Shown: positions 11,580-60,235 of the stretch, piece by piece
Layout: each line of letters starts with the position of its first letter
How positions within the stretch are numbered: position 1 is the first letter of the stretch
Assembly: GCF_006345805.1 (NCBI RefSeq)
Contig: NC_043009.1
Location: 34,534,001-34,598,000, forward strand
DNA from: Octopus sinensis
Taxonomy: Eukaryota
Length of the DNA stretch: 64,000 bases
Reading direction: 5' to 3'
Translations under genes and position numbers: made by a program
Notes under the pieces: model-generated
What the model was told of the DNA's origin: nothing
Databases searched by the model: none
The model's input: only the letters and a program-made list of their open reading frames with translations

Positions 11580-13385
11580 TCGCAACCGATGTGCTCGCGA
11601 CGAGATTGGTCTGGGACCAAAGCGCAAAGATTGCATTTTCAGAGCTAAGGCGTGTGCTCTAAAAAGTGAGGGAACGAAAGCTGCTCAATTGGCCCCAATG
11701 GCAGAGGTGCAACGTGGTTATAGGTGGACCAAAATGGGTGCACGGTACTCGAGTCCAAACAGATGTGTGCAGTATTTAAGCTGCACTTCGCTCAACTCTT
11801 TTAAACGAATGACAGTCCGGAACGCAGGATGGACTTCAGTGCCTACCTTGATAGCGTTCCACGACTCACGGCAAGAAAAGTAGAGCTTTGCGGGATGTGA
11901 TGATGGGCTGCAAGGTATGAATGGTCTACCAGACGAGCTTTGATTTTATATGCCAGATCTGTCTGGCTGCTTTTAGGAAATATTTACTGCAATTGGCAAC
12001 AGAACAAGAAAACTTCTAGTTCTGTGAGTAGAGGAGCGGCGGTGCTGCTAAGAAAAGACCCAAACAAGCGGTATAAAATAGAAAATTTTAGGCTTATAAC
12101 GCAGCTGAACGCAGATTTCAGAATTTTAGCTAAGATGTTAGCGAAGAGGTTGGTGCTTATACTCTTCTCTTTACTCTTTTACTTGTTTCAGTCATTTGAC
12201 TGTGGCCATGCTGGAGCACCGCCTTTAGTCGAGCAATTGTAAGCCTAGTACTTATTCTATCGGTCTCTTTTGCTGAACCGCTAATTTACGGGGAAGGATG
12301 AAAGGCAACGTCGACCTCTGCAGAATTTGAACTGGGAACGTAATGACCGACACATTTTGTCCGACGTGCTAAAGATTCCGCCAGCTCGCTGCCTTATGGT
12401 CAAAGAACTGATTGGTGATGTACAAATACGCGCCATCTCAAGCAGATCTGTCCCTGGCAACCTCTAACCCATGCGATACATCATAGACATGGTGGGTAAA
12501 GAAGCTGGAATGGATGGAGCCCTGATAAATTTGGATCGATCAAAAACCTTCAATACGGTCGGTCCGCAATGCATGGTGGTTGGTTTCGGCCCCGTTTTCC
12601 TTGGCTGGATTACCGCAATGTACAACGAGATCCGTCAAAGGTTTCCCCCTCTCGTCTTTTCTGTATGTGTAGGCTGTAGGACTACCACTACAGAAACTGG
12701 AGCCGTTGAGAAACATCTCGCGCAAACTAGAACGTGGGAGAACTTTGTCGGTATATGCGGACGACATTACAGTCATTGTGTTGAACACTAGACATAAAGG
12801 GCATTTTAGGGCATACACTAGGCATACAAGCCCTGACAGAAGCAAACATTAACCAAGAAAAGTCAGGGGACCCACCACTCAGCACCTGAAGTGGCGGGTC
12901 TATACCTTCCAATAATGTCATGGGACACTGGAAGGAGGAACCGGTTAACTTGTTCGAGGCCTGGTTTAGTCTGGATTTCCGAGTGGAGAAGAACTGGGAC
13001 GAAGTGACGGGTAGGGTAGCCAGTCTCATTCAGGAATGGGCCGAGAGAAAGCTTTCTCTGAAAGGCCGGAGAGAGGTGGCAAATGTATACATCGCCTACG
13101 TTGTATATTACCACTTGACCATCGTTCTTTGCTGCAGTTTACACCTGACAAAACGAGTGCATAGTCTTCCGCTTTTTGTGGAAAGGACGCATTCCTCTGG
13201 TCAGACTCTCCATTTGTTGCCAACACCCGCTGAATGGGCATGCCGTGGCTGCTGATGCGCAGACATGAGCTGACGGTGAGCAGCCGTTGGTGAGACTCGC
13301 TCTGCCGCAGCTCGTCTGTTTGACTGAGCTGCAGCCCTGGATCAAACGTAGACCGAAACGGCGTCTGGCACCTAGAGTATTGTAA
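11580..13385 (+). mobile_element. Decayed L1/Tx1-clade LINE (RT region), interrupted by SINE fragments
   Basis: ENFRLITQLNADFRILAKMLAKRL; GALINLDRSKTF; YADDITVIV; WAERKLSLKGRREVAN; many frameshifts. Confidence 0.8.
12160..12395 (-). mobile_element. Chimeric SINE insertion: family B head joined to family A tail
   Basis: 12160-12293 matches family A 3' part; 12294-12395 matches family B head. Confidence 0.75.
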
Positions 13386-15017: not shown

Positions 15018-18000
15018 ATGGACACCCTTGACACCATTCTGAGAACTGAGTTCACCAAGAATGACAAAAAGGATAGAGAAAGCCCTCCCCCGGACCCAGC
15101 GATCCCTCAAAAGAACAAAACCAAAGCCATAACAGAGAGGCCTGCAAACGAAGGAAACAACGATACTGGTCCTGTTTCCAACAAGTTAGAAGACGAAAGA
15201 GTTGAGAGGGCCGAAAAAGGCAAAGAAAAACATAAAACCGACAAAACAAAAGCTGTCAGAAACAAAGAAGTGCGTGGAATAAAAGAAAGGGAAAATGAAG
15301 AAACAACAAAAGATGTTGGGACGAAGCAGAAAACCCCCAACAAAAGCCACTGGAGTTAAAAAACAAAAGCAGAAGCTTTTGCAAATTTTACCTGCAAGAG
15401 AACTGCCGGCACGGTAATGATGGTGCAAACTGTCAGTTTGCACATCAGAAGCCTTACCAAAACTGCATGGGCCCAAAACAATACTCCCTTCCACGAAGAG
15501 GATAAAAAGAAATGCACCAAAGAAGAAAAAAATGGCACACTGTTTACTCCCCAAAGACGATATGCAGATATAGTGCGTAACCCAACAAACAGCCGGATGT
15601 GGGTAGCAGCTGAACGACAATCTTTTTTGTGCATGGCACAAAAGATTGTCCGGCAGCTGACCTGGCTACAAACACAAACTTGGAACTACACCCACTACCA
15701 CACAAGGCCACCACCACCAATAAATACCGGATAGCCACCACTAACACCAACGCAGACGTCACAAAAATATTTCTTCTAAATATCGCAGGGCTGTTGCACG
15801 TCAACAGTAAAACAAAAATCTCGTTCTTGAGAGAGCTTGCTGCATGCAATCAAGTTCTATGCATAGCACTTGTGGAAACGCATCTTAGACCGGATATAAG
15901 GGATGCAGAAATACCACAATATGTTGTCATACGCTGGGATAGAAAGGAGAGGAGCCATGGTGGAGTTGATGTGTACATCCGAGAGGACCTCACACCTTAG
16001 GTCCTGTTGTCATATTTAAATTCAGTGTGTGACACTCAAATTGTACACATAAGACAACTTAATGTTGTCATATGTACTACATATTGTCCACTGGATGCTC
16101 CAAATCATGCGGGTAAGTTTGAAGACTGCCTAGCAAAGATAGAAGTTCTCACCAAATTGGAACAATACATCAGTGTATTCCTGGGGGGCCAGACACTCCC
16201 AAGAATGGCATACCACCAGCAAGCACAGGCGGATTCCTTACTCCACCTTATCAATGATTCTTTCATGGAGCAAATTGTGTTGCAATCAACCAGGGCAAAT
16301 AATATACTGGATATCTGCTTCACAAACAATACGGACATTATCCATAATGTTAGAGTGACACTGACGTTGGTTTCGGATCACAAATAAACAGAACTATCTA
16401 TGTATGGACCAAAAACCGCTGCAGACGTACAGCCTATACAAAGCACCCAAAATGTCTCCAAACTGAATTTTCATAAAGCAAACTGGAAGTTGATTGAGAA
16501 AGAGATCCTCAAATAGGATTGGCCTAAATGTCTCAAAGCATCAGACATTGACATGAAACACAAACATTTCATGTTCATAATGCAAGCCATACGTGACAAA
16601 TCTGTCCCAGAGCGCAGGGCCAGCATACACAAAAACAGGATCCCTCTGTAAGGAAGATTCTTATGAGACGACGTATTAGAGATTGCGAACTGCCTGAACA
16701 AGCGCCCCAAAAGTGATGAGAAGTCTTTCCTGGAGAGAACGCTGTTGGAGATTGAGAAAAGTCTGCATCAATCTTACGAAAAGGAGAGAGTAGATAAAGG
16801 AACTTGGGTTATAGAAAGTATCAAGTCGAACGCTAAAGCTTTCTTTAAGTTTGCCAAAGAAACAGCCTCAGTACACCACAAGATAGGGCCCCTCTTCCAA
16901 AAAGATGGCCCCTCACAGGAAATCCAATGAGTATAAGTGAAATACTGAACTAACAGTTCCAAAGTGTATTTACTACATCTCTGGGATATAGGCAAGTGAA
17001 CAAACCAGCGGACCTCTTTGCAAATTTACCTGTAACCAAAGAGGTGATAATTGATTATACCAACATTAAAGATGTAACACTGGCCATAGATGAAATTGAC
17101 ACAAACTCAGCTGTTGGCCCTTCTCAAATCGTGCAAACGAGCCCTTGCAAAACCATTGAAGCTTCTTTTTCAGAATCTTCTTGCAAGTGGTAAGTTCCTA
17201 GACAAACTGAAGGAAGGGATAATATGCCGTATCCATAAAGGAGGAGGCAGAGTAGATGCTAAAAATTATATGCCTATCTCTTTAACCCCACATATCAGCA
17301 AAGTCATGGAATGAATAGCCTGCAAGAAACTAATCGCGTTTCTTGAAGAAAATGACTTGCTGATTGACACCCAGTATGGATTTCGACCAGGTAGAAGTTG
17401 CCTGACACAGCTCTTGCAACATTACGACTGGGTGTTAAAACAGCTGCTAAATGACTCAAGTGTGGATGTAATATATCTCGACTTTGCAAAAGCCTTTGAT
17501 AAAGTCAACTGTGGTATATGTCACAAACTGCGTGATCTCGGCATAGTCGGAAAACTTGGAGACTTTCTAAAAGATAGACGTCAGGCAGGGTGGCCAATGT
17601 AGCTACCTCAACGGAAACATAAATAGCAAGTGGTGTTTCATAGGGCATTGTCTTAAGGGCTACTGCTATTCACAGTGGCCCTCTCAGATATATCTTCAGC
17701 TGCTCAGATAACCATCCTTGCTAGCTATGCAGATGACACAAAAGTCTCTCAGACAATACAAAATCTTGGAAATATTGTGCATCTACAACGGGAGTTGGGT
17801 GCAATATACAACTGGGCTGAGGAAAACAACATGCAGTTTAATGCAGGAAAATTCCAAGCCCTGCACTACGAGCACACAAAGCCGAATTACATGCAGACAG
17901 GAATTACATGCAGACAGGATACACTGGCCTGGGAAGAATTGCAATCCCTGAATAAAAATCAGTGTGTGACTTAGGCATTGACATGAACAATGATTTACCT

Positions 18001-18080
18001 TTCCAGGTGCATATTACCAATTTGATAATAAAATGCAGATGGCTAGCTAGATGGATCCTACGAATTTCTGAAACAAGAGA
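15018..18080 (+). mobile_element. Decayed CR1-like LINE: ORF1 with CCCH-like Cys motif, APE endonuclease and RT; 3' end missing
   Basis: CKFYLQENCRHG..CQFAH; IFLLNIAGL..ALVETHL..DRKERSHGGV; QYGFRPGRSCLTQLL; IYLDFAKAFDKV; YADDTK; stops and frameshifts throughout. Confidence 0.88.
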
Positions 18081-19906
18081 AAGATGTAACTGCAGAATTA
18101 AATCAAAATGCCCGGCCCCTGATTTATGCGGGTTAATTAACATAATCTATAAGTGCTCCGTAACCACAGATAATAATAAGTTCTCTTATGTTGGATGCAC
18201 TGTAAATTTTAAACAGAGATTGAATAATCATCTCTCATCTTTTAAATTACGTCATAAGGCTGATAGCACTACTCTTTCTAGTAAAATTTGGGAACTAAAA
18301 AACAATAATATCAAATATAACCTAAATTGGGAATTAATCAGAAGAGCAAAACCCTATAAAAATAGCAGAGTAGGCTGCCAACTTTGCTCCATGGAAGCAT
18401 TTGAAATACTAATGTATAAAAATAATGGAGAAATTCAATTAAACAGCAGAATTGAACTTGGAAATTCTTGTATACATGCTCGGTTTAAGACTCTTAAATA
18501 TTTTAAATGATATTTTAAATCATATCTCAATTGATAACTGTATACTGGAATCATTTTACATAAAATTCATTTTGACTTACATATCACTCCTACTTAGTAT
18601 ATATTTAACTAGAAAGATAAGTTCTAACTAGCTATGATTATAATTTTTCTCTCTCTGATGGTACTATTTGATACTTATTGACTTAAATTATTTATTTGAT
18701 TTATTTCTATTGGACCATATTATTAATAAATTAATTTTATCTCCATTTCTTAGTCTATTTTTTATCCCATTACAAACTTTAGTTAGTTAATTCTCTTAAT
18801 TTCTTTTAAATTTTTAAAATTAATTTCTGCTAATACCAGACCTATAGTAGTGTATTGTGATGTGATATAATTTATCAAAATAAAATAATATAATATAGTG
18901 TAGTGTATTATAGTTTAGTATAATAATAATATAATTGTTTAATTTCATTTAATATTTTCATTTAATAACATTATGTATGTTTTATAGTTTAGTATAATAA
19001 TAATATAATAGTTTAATTTCATTTAAAAACAACCCCATTTTTCTTTCCTTTCTAATGACCTCTTTGTAACCTGACAATCTATTAATAGTAACATTTATAA
19101 ATAAAGAAATAAATTGTTGACCTCAGTTAGAATTTGTTCCAAACAAACTTAGACTTTTTTGTTAGTATCAAATTGTGCCCATCCCCTTAGCTTCCCCTTT
19201 CCTTTCTCTTTGACAGCTTAAATAGCAGTAACTGATTAAATTCCTACCCCCTTCCTCCTCTTTCTGTGATTCTTGAATATTTCATTAACTACCTGAACCA
19301 CTACAATATAAGGCTGTCATTTTTGCTTCTCATTCGGACTCCCTGATATTTTCGCATGATTGTACCCTAAATCCCTCCACAAAACTGGATTACGAACTAT
19401 AAGGACATACAAAAATTTGTAAGTTCTAGACTTTTTCATCAGATCTCCAAAAAAATCGAACTTATCTGCGATTCTTGTTAATTTCAATAACAATCTGTTC
19501 CTCTACACGACATGACAGTCACTATGTTATTACTCAGACTTTCCTCTACATGATGTGGCAGGTACTTTGCCTCTTACTCGGATTTTCAGAAATTTTGCAT
19601 GACTGTATCCGAAAATTTCTTCATACAACTTGATCAAATATTCAATATGAGCTATATGTAGACATGCATAAATTCTATAGGTTTAAAACCTTTCATCTGA
19701 TCTCCATGAATCGAACTTTCTTCAATGCAGTTAATCCTACAACCTCTTTTATATCTACCCCTTTTGATGTTTGGGAATTCTCTGATATGTTTTCGGCTGA
19801 CGAGTACGAGCCATCTGTATTCACTGCATTTTTTGTAGCTTATTAAAGATGTCCTCGTACGAAACGATCGTACCGAGATTTTAATCCATTCTTGTTGCTT
19901 TTTTCC
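18081..19906 (+). mobile_element. 5'-truncated Penelope-like element (Naiad-type GIY-YIG, long 3' UTR, terminal HHR) ending in (TA)n
   Basis: Open CNCRIKSKCP...IIYKC...YVGCT..FKQRLNNH...CQLC..E...LNSRIE...CIH to stop at 18510; HHR at 19791. Confidence 0.85.
19791..19878 (+). ncRNA. Type I hammerhead ribozyme
   Basis: tttcgg CTGACGA gtacgag...ctcgtac GAAA cgatcg TA ccgaga; palindromic stem III ACGATCGT; predicted cut after A19872. Confidence 0.88.
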
Positions 19907-42669: not shown

Positions 42670-43947
42670 TTAGGTTGTTCCGAAAATAATGGCCGCTCTA
42701 AGTGTGTTTTGAAACGCAATTTTATCATCGTATTTTAATAATTGATGTATGTATGTTTAATAAATGATGCATGCTCTTAAAAAATGTTCTACTTATTTCA
42801 GACAGAAAACATTCTTGAAGCATAGGCACCCTTAATTATGAACATGACAAAAAAAAGACCTTCGCTTACTTTTCTTGCATGAGTTCAAGCTTGGACACAA
42901 TACCTCCCAAACTGCTGCCAATATCAACAGAGCATGGGGAGAGGGATCCACAAGTGATGGCACAGTACGAAGTTGGTTTCAGAAATTCCGTAGTGGTGAT
43001 GAGAGCCTTGAAGATGAAGAAGGTAGAGGACGGTCATGCAGTCTTGATAATGAACAGTTGAAAGCAATTGTTGAAGAAAACCCAGGTCAAAGTGTCAGAG
43101 AAATATCTCAGGCACTTGGTGTGGGTATTGCGATGGTCTCGCGCAAACTTCAGAAAATTGGTAAGGTGAAAAAGCTCGATAAATGGGTACCAAATGAGCT
43201 CAATGAAAATCAAAAAGTTCAGTGTTTTGAAGTGTGCTCGATGCTCTTTCTGTGAAACACCAATGATCCTTTTCTTTGACCGAATGGTCACTTGTGACGA
43301 AAAGTGGATCCTTTATTATAACCGTAAACGATCAGGTCAATTGCTTGATCGTGATGGGTCCCTCAAGCATTTCCCAAAGCCAAAGTTGCATTAGCAAAAG
43401 ATTATGGTGACTGTCTGGTGGTTTTCAATTGGTGTTGTCCATTGCAGCTTTCTTGAAGCCAATCAGAGCTTTACAGCAGAGGTTTATTGCAATCAACTCA
43501 CTGAAACGCATGCTCACTTGCAAAAAATGAGACCTGCATTGGGGAATCGGCATGGCCCAATTCTGCTCCATGATAATGCAAAGCCACATGTTGCAAGGAT
43601 GATACGGCAGAAACTCACAGACTTGGGATAGGAGACTTTAGCACATCCCCCACATTCTCCTGATCTTTCACCCACTGACTACCATTTTTTAAAGCATTTA
43701 AACACGTTTCTTAGTGATAAAATTTTCAGGTCCAAACCAGAGGCGGAATCAGCTTTCAAAGATTTATTAGCATCAAAGCCAACAAGTTTTTTTTATCAAC
43801 AAGGCAAAAAAAAAATCTCATTGATTGATGGCAAGATGCATAGATGTTCACGGCTCACACTTTGACTAATCAAAAAATTTCTATTGTTAATTTTTCCAGA
43901 ATACGATTATGTATCTGAAATCGGCCATTATTTTCGGAACAACCTAA
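42670..43947 (+). mobile_element. Full-length mariner transposon (~1.28 kb) with disrupted D,D34D-type transposase
   Basis: Perfect 26-bp TIRs ttaggttgttccgaaaataatggccg, TA TSD; WVPNEL, TCDEKW, HDNA and HSPDLSPTDY motifs; stops and frameshifts. Confidence 0.95.
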
Positions 43948-48921: not shown

Positions 48922-51302
48922 ATCAAAATAAAACATGATGCGAAGGATTCAGCGGTACATATGTTTCGGGCCTTTATTAGACAGATTTATAACAATGCAT
49001 AATGTATGTCTGTGGCCTTCTTCAGCCGCGCACAACAGCTTCCACAAGGACATGTGTTACATCAAAAATTCTTGGTGGGGATGCAAATCCTCTCATTCGC
49101 GTACGACATAATGCGCAGCAGCATAGAATTGAAGCGTCCATCTCTTTCTTCTCTCAATGTAGAATGAGGAAAATTTGGATGTTGAAGTAATGTAAATAAA
49201 TAAATACATATATAGACGTGAAGATGGAGGGGCGAGAATTCAGGACGAGGGATAAAAAATGTATAAAAAGTGTAAGTATAGAAAAATATAAAAATGTAGA
49301 GCATAAAGATATAAAGAGATATAAGGAGATGTAAAGGGGGTATAAAGAATATAAAGAAATATAAAGAAATATAAATAAATGTAAAGGCATAAGGTTGTAA
49401 AGTAAAAATAGAAATAGAAATAAAAGTAAAAGTAAAAAGTAAAAAAATAAAGATAGGAATAAACATGATAAAAATGTAAAAAAATATAAAAAAATATAAA
49501 AAAATATAAAGATAAGGGATGTATAGAGGTTACGGACCAAACATGGTGGTCAGGAGATTGATAAAATTTAGTTGTAGAAGCTTTGGGTGTCAATAAATCA
49601 ACAGTTTCGTCTGGGGACCTAATGTGTTGTAAATCGGAGCTGTTGAGCGTTTAATCTGGTTCTTTGAATTAATTGGTCATCTAGTACATACATACCATCA
49701 TGGATACACACACCCATATACACGCGTACATATACGCCTCCAAGCCTATAAGCATACACACGCACTCGCGTGTAAACATGGACATAAACACACACACACC
49801 CACACGCACGCGCGTACATATACATACATACAACAGAATATCCGCATGTATACACGGACACTATACGTGTACACACCCATATGTACATACGTGCGCCCAT
49901 CCCTACATACACATACGCATATGCCCACGCTTCCAGGTTTAGATATAAGATATTAAAGGATGTATATAAGAACGTATGTAAAGAATCACGCACTCACGTC
50001 TACACGTGCACGCACACACGGCTGTGTGTCCATATGTGCGTGCACATATACACTTACATACACACACAGAGACATACGCGCATATGGGTATAGCTATAAG
50101 ATATTAAAAGATGTATACAAATAGGTGTAAACATATGAATATAAGAAAACATGTAAAAAAGAAATACGGGGTATGTACATCCAGACGTAGATGTTTACTC
50201 GTACATATGTACATATATGTATACGTATACATACGTACACGGACGCTCGTATAATCATAAAGTGGATCCATAGGTAAGTAAATAAGGGATAAGCAAAAGA
50301 AAATAGACATATATAGAGATGTAAAGCGATAAGTTAGGGGTAAGAATGAGGGTAAGGGTAAAAATTAGAAATAAAAGTAAGAAATACAGTATAAAATAAG
50401 AAATACAATGTAATAGTTAGAAATGAAATATAAAAATTATAAAAATTATAAGAGTTAAGGTAAGGGATGAAAATAAAAATGAGAATAAATGGAAGTAGAA
50501 TAAAAGTAAAAATAAAAGTAAAAATAAAAATAAAATAAAATAAGATAAAAATATAATTTGGTAAAGTTTAACATGAGAAGAAGGTGGTTGAAAGTTAGAG
50601 GTGTGTGTTAAAGGTGCCCACGTAGGGGCGGGCGGGGGGAACTGAAAATTGGAAGGGTGGGAAGTGGAGTTTGGCGGTGTGCGTTCAACATCCTAGTTAG
50701 AAATGTGAAAGGGTATAGATATAGGGAAATAAAGAGACTATATAGGAAGGATATGGGTGTAGGAGAAGAAATATGTAGGGAAAAGAAGTCATATATGGGA
50801 GACAAAATCTGTATATATAGGAGGAAAATGCAGGGAAACATATATGCACATACACACACCCACACACACACACACACACGCACACACACACATATATATA
50901 TATATATATACATATACGTACACATATGTGCACATACATATATATACGCACACATATACGCATATACACGCACTTATAGGAAAGCGGGATGTGCTGGAGC
51001 CGACAGGTTGCACCGGGTGGGAGGAAATGCATGGGGGAGTTGGGTAAACCTAAGCTTTGTAGTATTTGAAAGTATTAATAAGTTTGTGTATACAGGATGG
51101 TTTGAACTCTGACCTTTTGTTAATAAGATTGTGTTTGTCTTTGAATTTCAAGATGTTCAGGAGTTCTACACAACATAGTTGGCATCCTGCTCTATTATTT
51201 AAATAAGGTGCAGCTGATCCGATGATGGACCACCTGAGTTTGAAGCCTATGCATTTGTCTTTTAATTCCCAAATTCTTTTAGAAAGGGAGGTGCTGTTAG
51301 CC
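48919..51302 (-). mobile_element. 5'-truncated Penelope-like element (Naiad-type GIY-YIG C-terminus, ~2.1-kb low-complexity 3' UTR, terminal HHR), (TA)n both sides
   Basis: 51301-51050 translates ANSTSLSKRIWELKDK...CQLCCVE...LINKRSEFKPSCIH...KYYKA*, homologous to 18081-18510; not in ORF track. Confidence 0.85.
48952..49029 (-). ncRNA. Type I hammerhead ribozyme
   Basis: Minus strand: gcgg CTGAAGA a ggcc...ggcc c GAAA catatg TA ccgc; palindrome ACATATGT. Confidence 0.82.
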
Positions 51303-51303
51303 T

Positions 51304-51370
<67 letters not shown>

Positions 51371-51974
51371 GGGTAATATAAATTTTTACAAATTTCACTA
51401 CCAGTGGCCTAGCATGTATAAAATGTCAATAGACGACATATTATTCAATATAAAATTTTGTGGTTTTCGGTCGTTTTGACTGTCTCCTAGCGTGTAGAAA
51501 TCGCCTGTTATAATTAATTTCTCTTTGTGTTTAAATGCATTAATCAAATTAATATTCAATTTTTCCCCCTTATTATTTTAAATTAAAATTTAAATAGTTA
51601 TGTTCTCTAACTGGCAAAATTTACTGCAGAGAATTATTTCCGGTAGATTGGCGCGCCTAAACGACATTTTTGAAAAAGTAACCCCAATTGTATACATGTT
51701 CAATCTCATGCGGACGTCTCGTGTATAGTTCTGTAAATTATACTTGCTAAGACTATCACACTGACGAGTTGCGGATAATTACGTAAATGATTACGTAAGC
51801 ATTAACAACGAAACCTGGTTTGTGATTAATCTATATTTTGTATCTTTTCCTTTGTCGTGCTCGTTTACGTTCTGGTGTTAGCTAAATTTCCTTGAGAACA
51901 TTCCTTTCTTAATGGTAAGACCATAGTGGATCTTCTTCTAACATAATGGATGTCCACTTACAGGTCATTCCTTG

Positions 51975-51975: not shown

Positions 51976-52026
<51 letters not shown>

Positions 52027-52096
52027 GGTCCCGGTTGAGTCGGGGTTAACCACAGTAAATAAGGTACTCAATACATAACAGAGTAAATTAATTTAT

Positions 52097-52209
52097 TATA
52101 TAGAAGGAGCTTCTACAGGACTAGAACTGTTTCATTCAAAAGAAATCATCAGGAAGCTCCTGATGATTTCTTTTGAATGAAACAGTTCTAGTCCTGTAGA
52201 AGCTCCTTC

Positions 52210-52215
<6 letters not shown>
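52097..52215. ncRNA. Palindrome made of two back-to-back type I hammerheads
   Basis: Minus strand 52158-52108: agcttc CTGATGA tttc tttt gaat GAAA cag ttctagtc ctg TA gaagct; same motif on plus strand at 52155-52204. Confidence 0.8.
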
Positions 52216-52261
<46 letters not shown>

Positions 52262-59151: not shown

Positions 59152-59691
59152 GTGTGTGTGTGAGTGTGTGTGTGTGTACATAAGCATACAACCCTAGCTG
59201 ATTTATGGTCTAAGCTGACCTACTGCAATCAGTTTGGTCAGTGGACTTCCCTCTTTTCTCTTTTTATCGTTTTATAAGCTTTCTGTTTTCCTTTAATCTC
59301 CCTCTACTCTCTCTTTTTTCTCTCTTTATCTTTGGTTATACATGGTTTTGAGGGAGATGTGGCGTTGTTTGGAGTTCTTTGATATAATACCTTGTCTGAC
59401 CTCCATTGTGAAATTCAAGGTTACGTTTTGATTTAAAATTCCTCTGAGGTCGACTGTGTCTTTCATTCTGTCGGAGTAGATAAAATAAGTATCAGTCAAA
59501 CACTGGACTCAAAGTAATCGACTGTTCCCCGCTCCCGAAATTGCGGGCCTCATGCCAAAATTTGAAACCATTATTATTTCTGTGTGAATCTGTGTGAACC
59601 TCCTCACACCAGCGATTGGTGCATAAAAGCATCAGGGATCGTAGCAGACGAGAATCTTTCATGGGCGCCGAAACTCTCGTAATCGGATGCC

Positions 59692-59735
59692 TTCCACTGA
59701 TGATTTTCAGTAGAATGAAATCACGTGATATGGGG
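59692..59735 (+). ncRNA. Type I hammerhead at the apex of a long hairpin (59599-59816)
   Basis: ttcca CTGATGA ttttc agta gaat GAAA tcacgtga TA tgggg; 10-bp palindrome ATCACGTGAT. Confidence 0.78.
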
Positions 59736-59876
59736 ATTCCAGCATTCATGACAGACGATTCTCGTCTGCTAAGACCTATGTGTGTGCTTTTACACACCAG
59801 TTGCTTATATGAGAGGCTCTCTCAAGGTTGGTAATGCAGTATTCGGAGTTCTAAAAAGATATCCGTATTGAGTTGC

Positions 59877-59920
<44 letters not shown>

Positions 59921-60235
59921 ATCTATATATATACATGCAACTCATATATCTTATATATATATATATATAGATATATATATATATATATTATTATATATTA
60001 TATAATATATATATATCACACATATATATATACATATATATATATGCATGTATGCATATGTATGTGTATATATATGCATAGGGCAAGGGAATAAAATTAT
60101 GTCATGAACTTCATTAGCTTACAGTTATTTCGGCTTTAAGATGCAATGCTGTCTTAGTCAAGTACTTGTGTATCACTCTATAACTTCATCGATGCTTCAA
60201 AAATGAAGTACAGTGTTATTTGGGATAGTATTTAC

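Follow-up and report, generated by a model that had tools for sequence, protein, structure and literature searches.

Metazoan non-LTR retrozymes are repeats with a monomer of 150-450 bp, one type I hammerhead, a GC content below 50% and many copies (Cervera and de la Pena 2020, PMC7229834). A palindromic helix III and dimeric action are usual among metazoan type I hammerheads (PMC4209133), and an axolotl retrozyme carries a U-U pair at the base of helix II (PMC7229834). Traits of Penelope-like elements (PLEs) are truncation at the 5' end, partial tandems, an inverted and 5'-truncated copy alongside, a tail of 30-40 bp at one end and microsatellite targets (10.1101/2021.04.23.441226). In vitro, the tail corresponds to the spacing of two internal reverse-transcription start sites, and the PLE enzyme cuts AT-rich DNA on both strands (PMC11167929). 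Retrozymes have been proposed to be non-autonomous PLE derivatives on the grounds of co-occurrence and pLTR homology (bioRxiv 10.64898/2026.07.22.740005). That preprint draws mostly on vertebrates and on homology, whereas the evidence given here is insertion anatomy in an invertebrate genome. Arguments over which enzyme mobilises animal retrozymes still draw on co-occurrence and homology; to these the family described below adds tails and 5' inversions of PLE type on monomers of retrozyme type.

The window, i.e. the whole stretch that was analysed, comprises 64,000 nucleotides of Octopus sinensis (contig NC_043009.1, positions 34,534,001 to 34,598,000). An initial annotation, made from the letters alone, had described a rod-like hairpin at 59599-59816, capped by a hammerhead motif. 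The locus is very probably a decayed copy of a 342-nt hammerhead repeat with part of that repeat duplicated beside it in inverted orientation, an arrangement likely produced by insertion into a TA-rich site by PLE enzymes. The coordinates of most features are specified in Table 1.

Table 1. Features of the hairpin locus and of the rest of the window (positions in the window)
Feature	Positions	Strand	Remarks
Broken reading frames	11900-13300 and 15600-17970		
GIY-YIG-type endonuclease fragment, PLE	17956-18510	+	Pfam-confirmed
Open frame, 135 aa	42848-43255	+	
GIY-YIG-type endonuclease fragment, PLE	51050-51385	-	GIY-YIG-like; Pfam confirms only 17956-18510
Unrelated very high-copy repeat	59420-59578	+	abuts left arm; summed depth greatly exceeds the hammerhead family's
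Inverted partial monomer copy (left arm)	59599-59684	-	consensus ~341 to 94; 78% identical over 88 columns
Direct 5'-truncated monomer copy	59685-59881	+	consensus ~296 to 156; 85% identical; ends in (TA)n
Right arm, within direct copy	59729-59816		covers same consensus segment as left arm
Arm pair 1	59599-59631 with 59785-59816		
Arm pair 2	59642-59656 with 59757-59771		15 bp, perfect
Arm pair 3	59659-59663 with 59747-59751		
Arm pair 4	59685-59690 with 59742-59747		
Type I hammerhead motif	59692-59735	+	from sequence, descriptor scan, consensus alignment and pairing probabilities
Hammerhead stem I	59692-59696 with 59731-59735		
Hammerhead core CUGAUGA	59697-59703		
Hammerhead stem II, weak	59704-59716		U-U at base
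Hammerhead GAAA	59717-59720		
10-nt palindrome, stem III	59720-59729		
AUA triplet	59728-59730		predicted cleavage after A59730
(TA)n-rich microsatellite	59877-60032	.	3' end of direct copy; putative insertion target

The hairpin and its hammerhead motif

All four nested arm pairs were confirmed by reading the sequence. The hairpin folds to -90.1 kcal/mol on the plus strand (z -7.0) and to -95.8 kcal/mol on the minus strand (z -9.6), with none of 200 shuffles as stable on either strand; relative to shuffles, the minus strand is the more stable of the two. The long-range pairing asserted in the initial annotation is thus real, as is borne out by the fold comparison that it had proposed, against shuffled controls and on both strands. 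The arms differ at 9 positions that are G-U compatible on the plus strand, at 9 that are G-U compatible on the minus strand, by 4 transversions and in 8 gap columns, i.e. the differences are neutral and without strand bias. The remark that several of them are G-U compatible on the plus strand is accurate for those 9, and uninformative because as many are G-U compatible on the minus strand.

Every part of the reported hammerhead was located in the sequence, including the palindromic stem III and the AUA site, and the motif has the type I features (CUGANGA, GAAA, NUH and three stems, open at stem I). The full hammerhead descriptor matched twice in the window (59692-59735, and 52152-52114 on the minus strand), versus a mean of 0.01 matches per window in 100 shuffles, and the motif is not a chance match. 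With Rfam, no hammerhead was found at gathering score in the whole window, nor at E<=10 in 59300-59950; the sole low-E matches were AT-repeat artefacts.

Three pairs of stems I and II that are Watson-Crick in the family consensus are now G-U in the window copy (59693, 59707 and 59735). The predicted probability of stem I is ~0.8 in the consensus region versus 0.00-0.02 in the window copy, whether the inverted arm is included or not. That of stem II is 0.00 in the window copy and below 0.01 even in the consensus, so that thermodynamic folding is an imperfect guide to hammerhead activity. Forcing the hammerhead stems in the window copy has a predicted cost of 16 kcal/mol. These monomer predictions, taken as indicative, suggest that the ribozyme fold is no longer formed by the window copy. 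In a dimer, the palindrome could pair between the two molecules as stem III (predicted duplex energy -12.9 kcal/mol); it is a trait of the 342-nt family generally and not peculiar to the window copy.

The 342-nt repeat family

The genome that was searched measures 2.72 Gb and is rich in microsatellites. A search with 59560-59860 yielded 428 first-look candidates, of which 40 were scored: good matches started at ~59685, and the left arm was matched only in reverse, inside those same matches. A search with one monomer yielded 2415 first-look candidates (40 scored). Of 60 loci fetched, 6 were duplicates; the consensus was built from the remaining 54 distinct loci, which are top-scoring matches and not a random sample. 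Extension of the loci revealed a tandem-type, circularly permuted monomer, and iterative consensus building converged at 342 nt with 42% GC. The monomer is non-coding, with stops in all six frames of the consensus dimer. Contiguous family runs reach 817 nt (~2.4 units); among the 54 loci no long arrays of the monomer and no clear case of two consecutive intact cores were seen, and the window copy is shorter than one unit.

Family segments are 72-91% identical to the consensus, and the family is an old, dispersed and decaying repeat. Column conservation is 67% at CpG, 86% at other columns and 94% at the 11 hammerhead core columns (411/438 in the core versus 3620/4217 at other non-CpG columns). 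The excess in the core could reflect some selection, and is fitted equally well by several constrained master copies or by search bias. The core is retained in 28 of 56 matches (one match at locus L049 was possibly counted twice). Exact genome matches number 0 for the 39-nt majority motif and 8 for a 23-nt window motif, which suggests, as far as motif counts can, that there is no large young subfamily of that type. An exact 34-nt motif had no match in a viral contig set, a weak test. A short contig from one run, guessed to be RNA, matches 59713-59758 with 4 differences; assembled contigs of this kind show no level, strand or ends.

Folded as a circle, the consensus reaches -119.6 kcal/mol (z -8.0, 100 shuffles), and its hammerhead caps a long stem I of the family's own, built from upstream monomer sequence that is missing in the window copy. 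For the ancestral monomer, a stable RNA with most of its length paired is predicted. RNAalifold, applied to 40 copies, gave no consensus structure. For pair counts on the named structure in 40 copies, 82.3% were paired versus 81.9% after shuffling, and 23-50 of 500 shuffles reached the observed values, so the family carries no covariation signal; a missing excess of pairs is as expected for copies that decay after insertion. The only suggestive site is a change from U-A to G-C in stem II, in 4 copies. The compensatory changes that the initial annotation had proposed to seek among homologues therefore do not exceed the control in the family's stem, as far as tested in these 40 copies.

At position 10.1-11.1 the main subfamily has U-U, and a minority has G-C or G-U. 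The minority with G at hammerhead 10.1 comprises loci L007, L026, L028, L035, L036, L040, L053 and L054; some of its members also show the change from U-A to G-C in stem II. This minority is closer to the canonical ribozyme and is possibly the older master type.

In longer copies (several of L033-L060, and L006, L017, L025 and L030) the 5' ends are concentrated at consensus 307-342, a short way upstream of a second hammerhead cleavage site, and the second search selects for such ends. The cluster may mark a reverse-transcription stop.

In its sequence traits, the family agrees with the metazoan non-LTR retrozymes: it is non-coding, has one type I hammerhead and 42% GC, and gave 2415 candidates. 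The stably self-paired monomer predicted for those retrozymes is likewise shared, as is the U-U mismatch at the base of helix II of the axolotl HHR_Amex2 (PMC7229834 for both). It differs from them in that its copies are old, dispersed and truncated partial tandems of at most ~2.4 units, known from sequence alone, and in that 5' inversions are common; the word 'inverted' is absent from the main text of PMC7229834. No published description of the family was found in the largely open-access octopus and cephalopod literature on hammerheads, retrozymes and Penelope, at the level of titles and abstracts; supplementary family lists might include it.

Two joined pieces and the anatomy of insertion

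The alignment to the monomer indicates that the 220-nt rod consists of two monomer pieces, one direct and one inverted, which meet head to head, and the hammerhead lies in the hairpin loop because of where the window copy was truncated. The two arms are 72% alike and carry 11 and 17 private differences from the consensus; at 11 sites changed in the right arm, the left arm kept the consensus base. Both arms have the same base at the two positions where both differ from the consensus, as expected from one template. The divergence between them is close to the sum of their divergences from the consensus, and both are therefore about as old as the family. The junction region gave 27 matches, all scored, and the single one that spans the junction is the window's own. 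A contig of sequencing run X2, possibly from the source sample, extends across the junction with a perfect match to 59551-59714.

A directly adjacent head-to-head inversion, the PLE trait of an adjacent inverted 5'-truncated copy, was found at 14 of the 54 loci (13 of 53 if the window locus is left out), with a different junction at each, and at 3 of 7 further loci found by pattern, two of these with a gap of 26-30 nt. In 13 of these 14 loci taken together (L011 has fewer than 30 paired columns and was omitted), arm differences compatible with G-U number 111 in sense and 118 in antisense. The possibility that junctions lie at the hammerhead cleavage site was rejected: they are scattered across loci, though the inverted piece in the window starts nearby.

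Among the 54 loci, the direct piece has its 3' end at consensus 150-171 in 22, at 185-209 in 18, at 172-184 in none and elsewhere in 14; BLAST end points are imprecise in AT-rich flanks. There are thus two clusters ~40 nt apart with none between, as for the optional PLE tail of 30-40 bp, and many of these ends run into microsatellites. The window copy ends at about consensus 156, in (TA)n, and the outer ends of inverted pieces often lie within the same two clusters. Like PLEs and pLTRs, the family has 5' truncation, partial tandems, adjacent inverted 5'-truncated copies, a tail of 30-40 bp, AT-rich or microsatellite targets and a hammerhead with a palindromic helix III (10.1101/2021.04.23.441226, PMC11167929, PMC4209133). 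It differs from PLEs in the monomer: no RT or GIY-YIG ORF was seen in it or attached to it at the 54 loci. Fragments of GIY-YIG type occur near 3 of the 54 loci, without an evident pLTR position. For an autonomous PLE that shares the monomer, 20 loci of one GIY-YIG family were compared and none matched the consensus (27814 GIY-YIG candidates in the genome). Since no partner PLE was found, it is the insertion anatomy that argues for the PLE link.

Taken together with the retrozyme traits, this anatomy suggests a non-LTR retrozyme family inserted in PLE fashion, of which the window locus is likely a dead copy; the locus itself is probably inert. The sequence of events would be as follows: master copies would have been transcribed as multimers, which the hammerhead would cut, probably as dimers via the palindromic stem III, and the cleaved RNA may have been circularised. 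The PLE reverse transcriptase/GIY-YIG endonuclease would then have nicked (TA)n DNA, reverse transcription would have started at one of two sites ~40 nt apart, and an inverted truncated copy would have been added at the 5' end. The insert would afterwards have decayed without function. As evidence for mobilisation of retrozymes by PLEs, the locus is modestly useful.

A more ambitious reading is tentative, and we consider it slightly less probable than its opposite: the 342-nt family would be a true circular-RNA retrozyme that carries the PLE 5' inversion and the tail with two start sites, and the inversion in the window would be an arrested step toward a self-propagating palindrome with two hammerheads, like that at 52022-52216 (described below). 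If true, this would be direct genomic evidence for reverse transcription of retrozyme RNA by PLE enzymes, and the 342-nt monomer would be a ready minimal substrate for locating PLE recognition and initiation sites.

A small fold-back is present at the insertion end: a 13-bp inverted repeat of the window copy's own 3' end, private substitutions included, surrounds (TA)n at 59869-59944.

Among the alternatives, the best to survive accepts the same dead family copy and separates the inversion from integration, by a DNA-level template switch or by a second neighbouring insertion. It is an unlikely one. The TA-rich flanks do fold back at this locus, and the arms are no more than 72% alike; against this, the 14 inverted loci are inverted on the 5' side and head to head, with outer ends often in the two clusters, the age of both arms is about that of the family, and the two derived bases common to both arms speak against insertions that were independent.

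Less probable still is a viroid- or retrozyme-like RNA under selection, with an architecture of its own, which would cleave and circularise. The strong plus-strand fold, the intact core letters and palindrome, and the G-U compatibility of all three hammerhead stem changes would suit such an RNA, and the hairpin has a superficial likeness to viroids and viroid-like circular rod RNAs in its long imperfect stem and hammerhead. Unlike viroids, the hairpin is genomic, and its arms are a neutrally decaying duplication. With its single hammerhead it would give no unit-length product, its junction is unique to the locus, and the folding results for the minus strand and for stems I and II run the other way. 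A rod that is maintained and propagated as an RNA unit was rejected on the lack of G-U strand bias and the unpropagated junction. Of the rod RNA proposed in the initial annotation, the kinship with retrozymes stands; the rod as the RNA's own architecture does not, its left arm being an inverted duplicate of the monomer.

The annotation's own alternative takes the arms for DNA-transposon terminal inverted repeats and the hammerhead core for a chance match. Widened to MITEs, it has long inverted arms around a short spacer in its favour and is highly improbable, indeed largely refuted: 40 of the 54 loci have no adjacent inverted arm, copies share no fixed terminal repeats, junctions differ, the arms are internal monomer sequence, the motif is not due to chance, and its core is kept in half of the matches.

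In animal genomes rich in PLEs, long hairpins around hammerheads can be by-products of insertion; G-U strand bias and junction uniqueness are cheap tests for such hairpins.

Other elements in the window

No coding ORF adjoins the hairpin, as the initial annotation had stated; the nearest GIY-YIG-like fragments are the two listed in Table 1. Young GIY-YIG elements with long open frames are abundant in the genome. The family of the fragment at 17956-18510 is young, with frames of up to 1124 aa elsewhere in the genome and long Asn-rich linkers; the hammerhead core pattern was absent at 19 of its 20 loci, and the single match looks like chance.

The high-copy repeat next to the left arm, which we take to be SINE-like, has matches near many loci of the 342-nt family, at varying distances. 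The open frame at 42848-43255 resembles a mariner transposase in its N-terminal helix-turn-helix region, and the broken frames resemble pieces of the endonuclease and reverse transcriptase of LINEs.

More striking than the hairpin is the element at 52022-52216: a different, young hammerhead family, present as a near-perfect head-to-head palindrome of ~190 bp with (TA)n flanks. Type I hammerhead cores lie on both strands, with a full stem I only in the minus-strand core, and stem II is U-U-based, as in the 342-nt family. A genome search gave 405 candidates; an inverted partner was present in 39 of the 40 scored and mostly 100% identical, in a search whose query held part of the junction and so favours such copies. 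The same asymmetric junction with a 5-nt loop recurs in all 20 fetched loci, which suggests that the palindrome moves as a unit. The tail of ~70 nt seen at these loci is left-sided in 6 of them and right-sided in the other 14.
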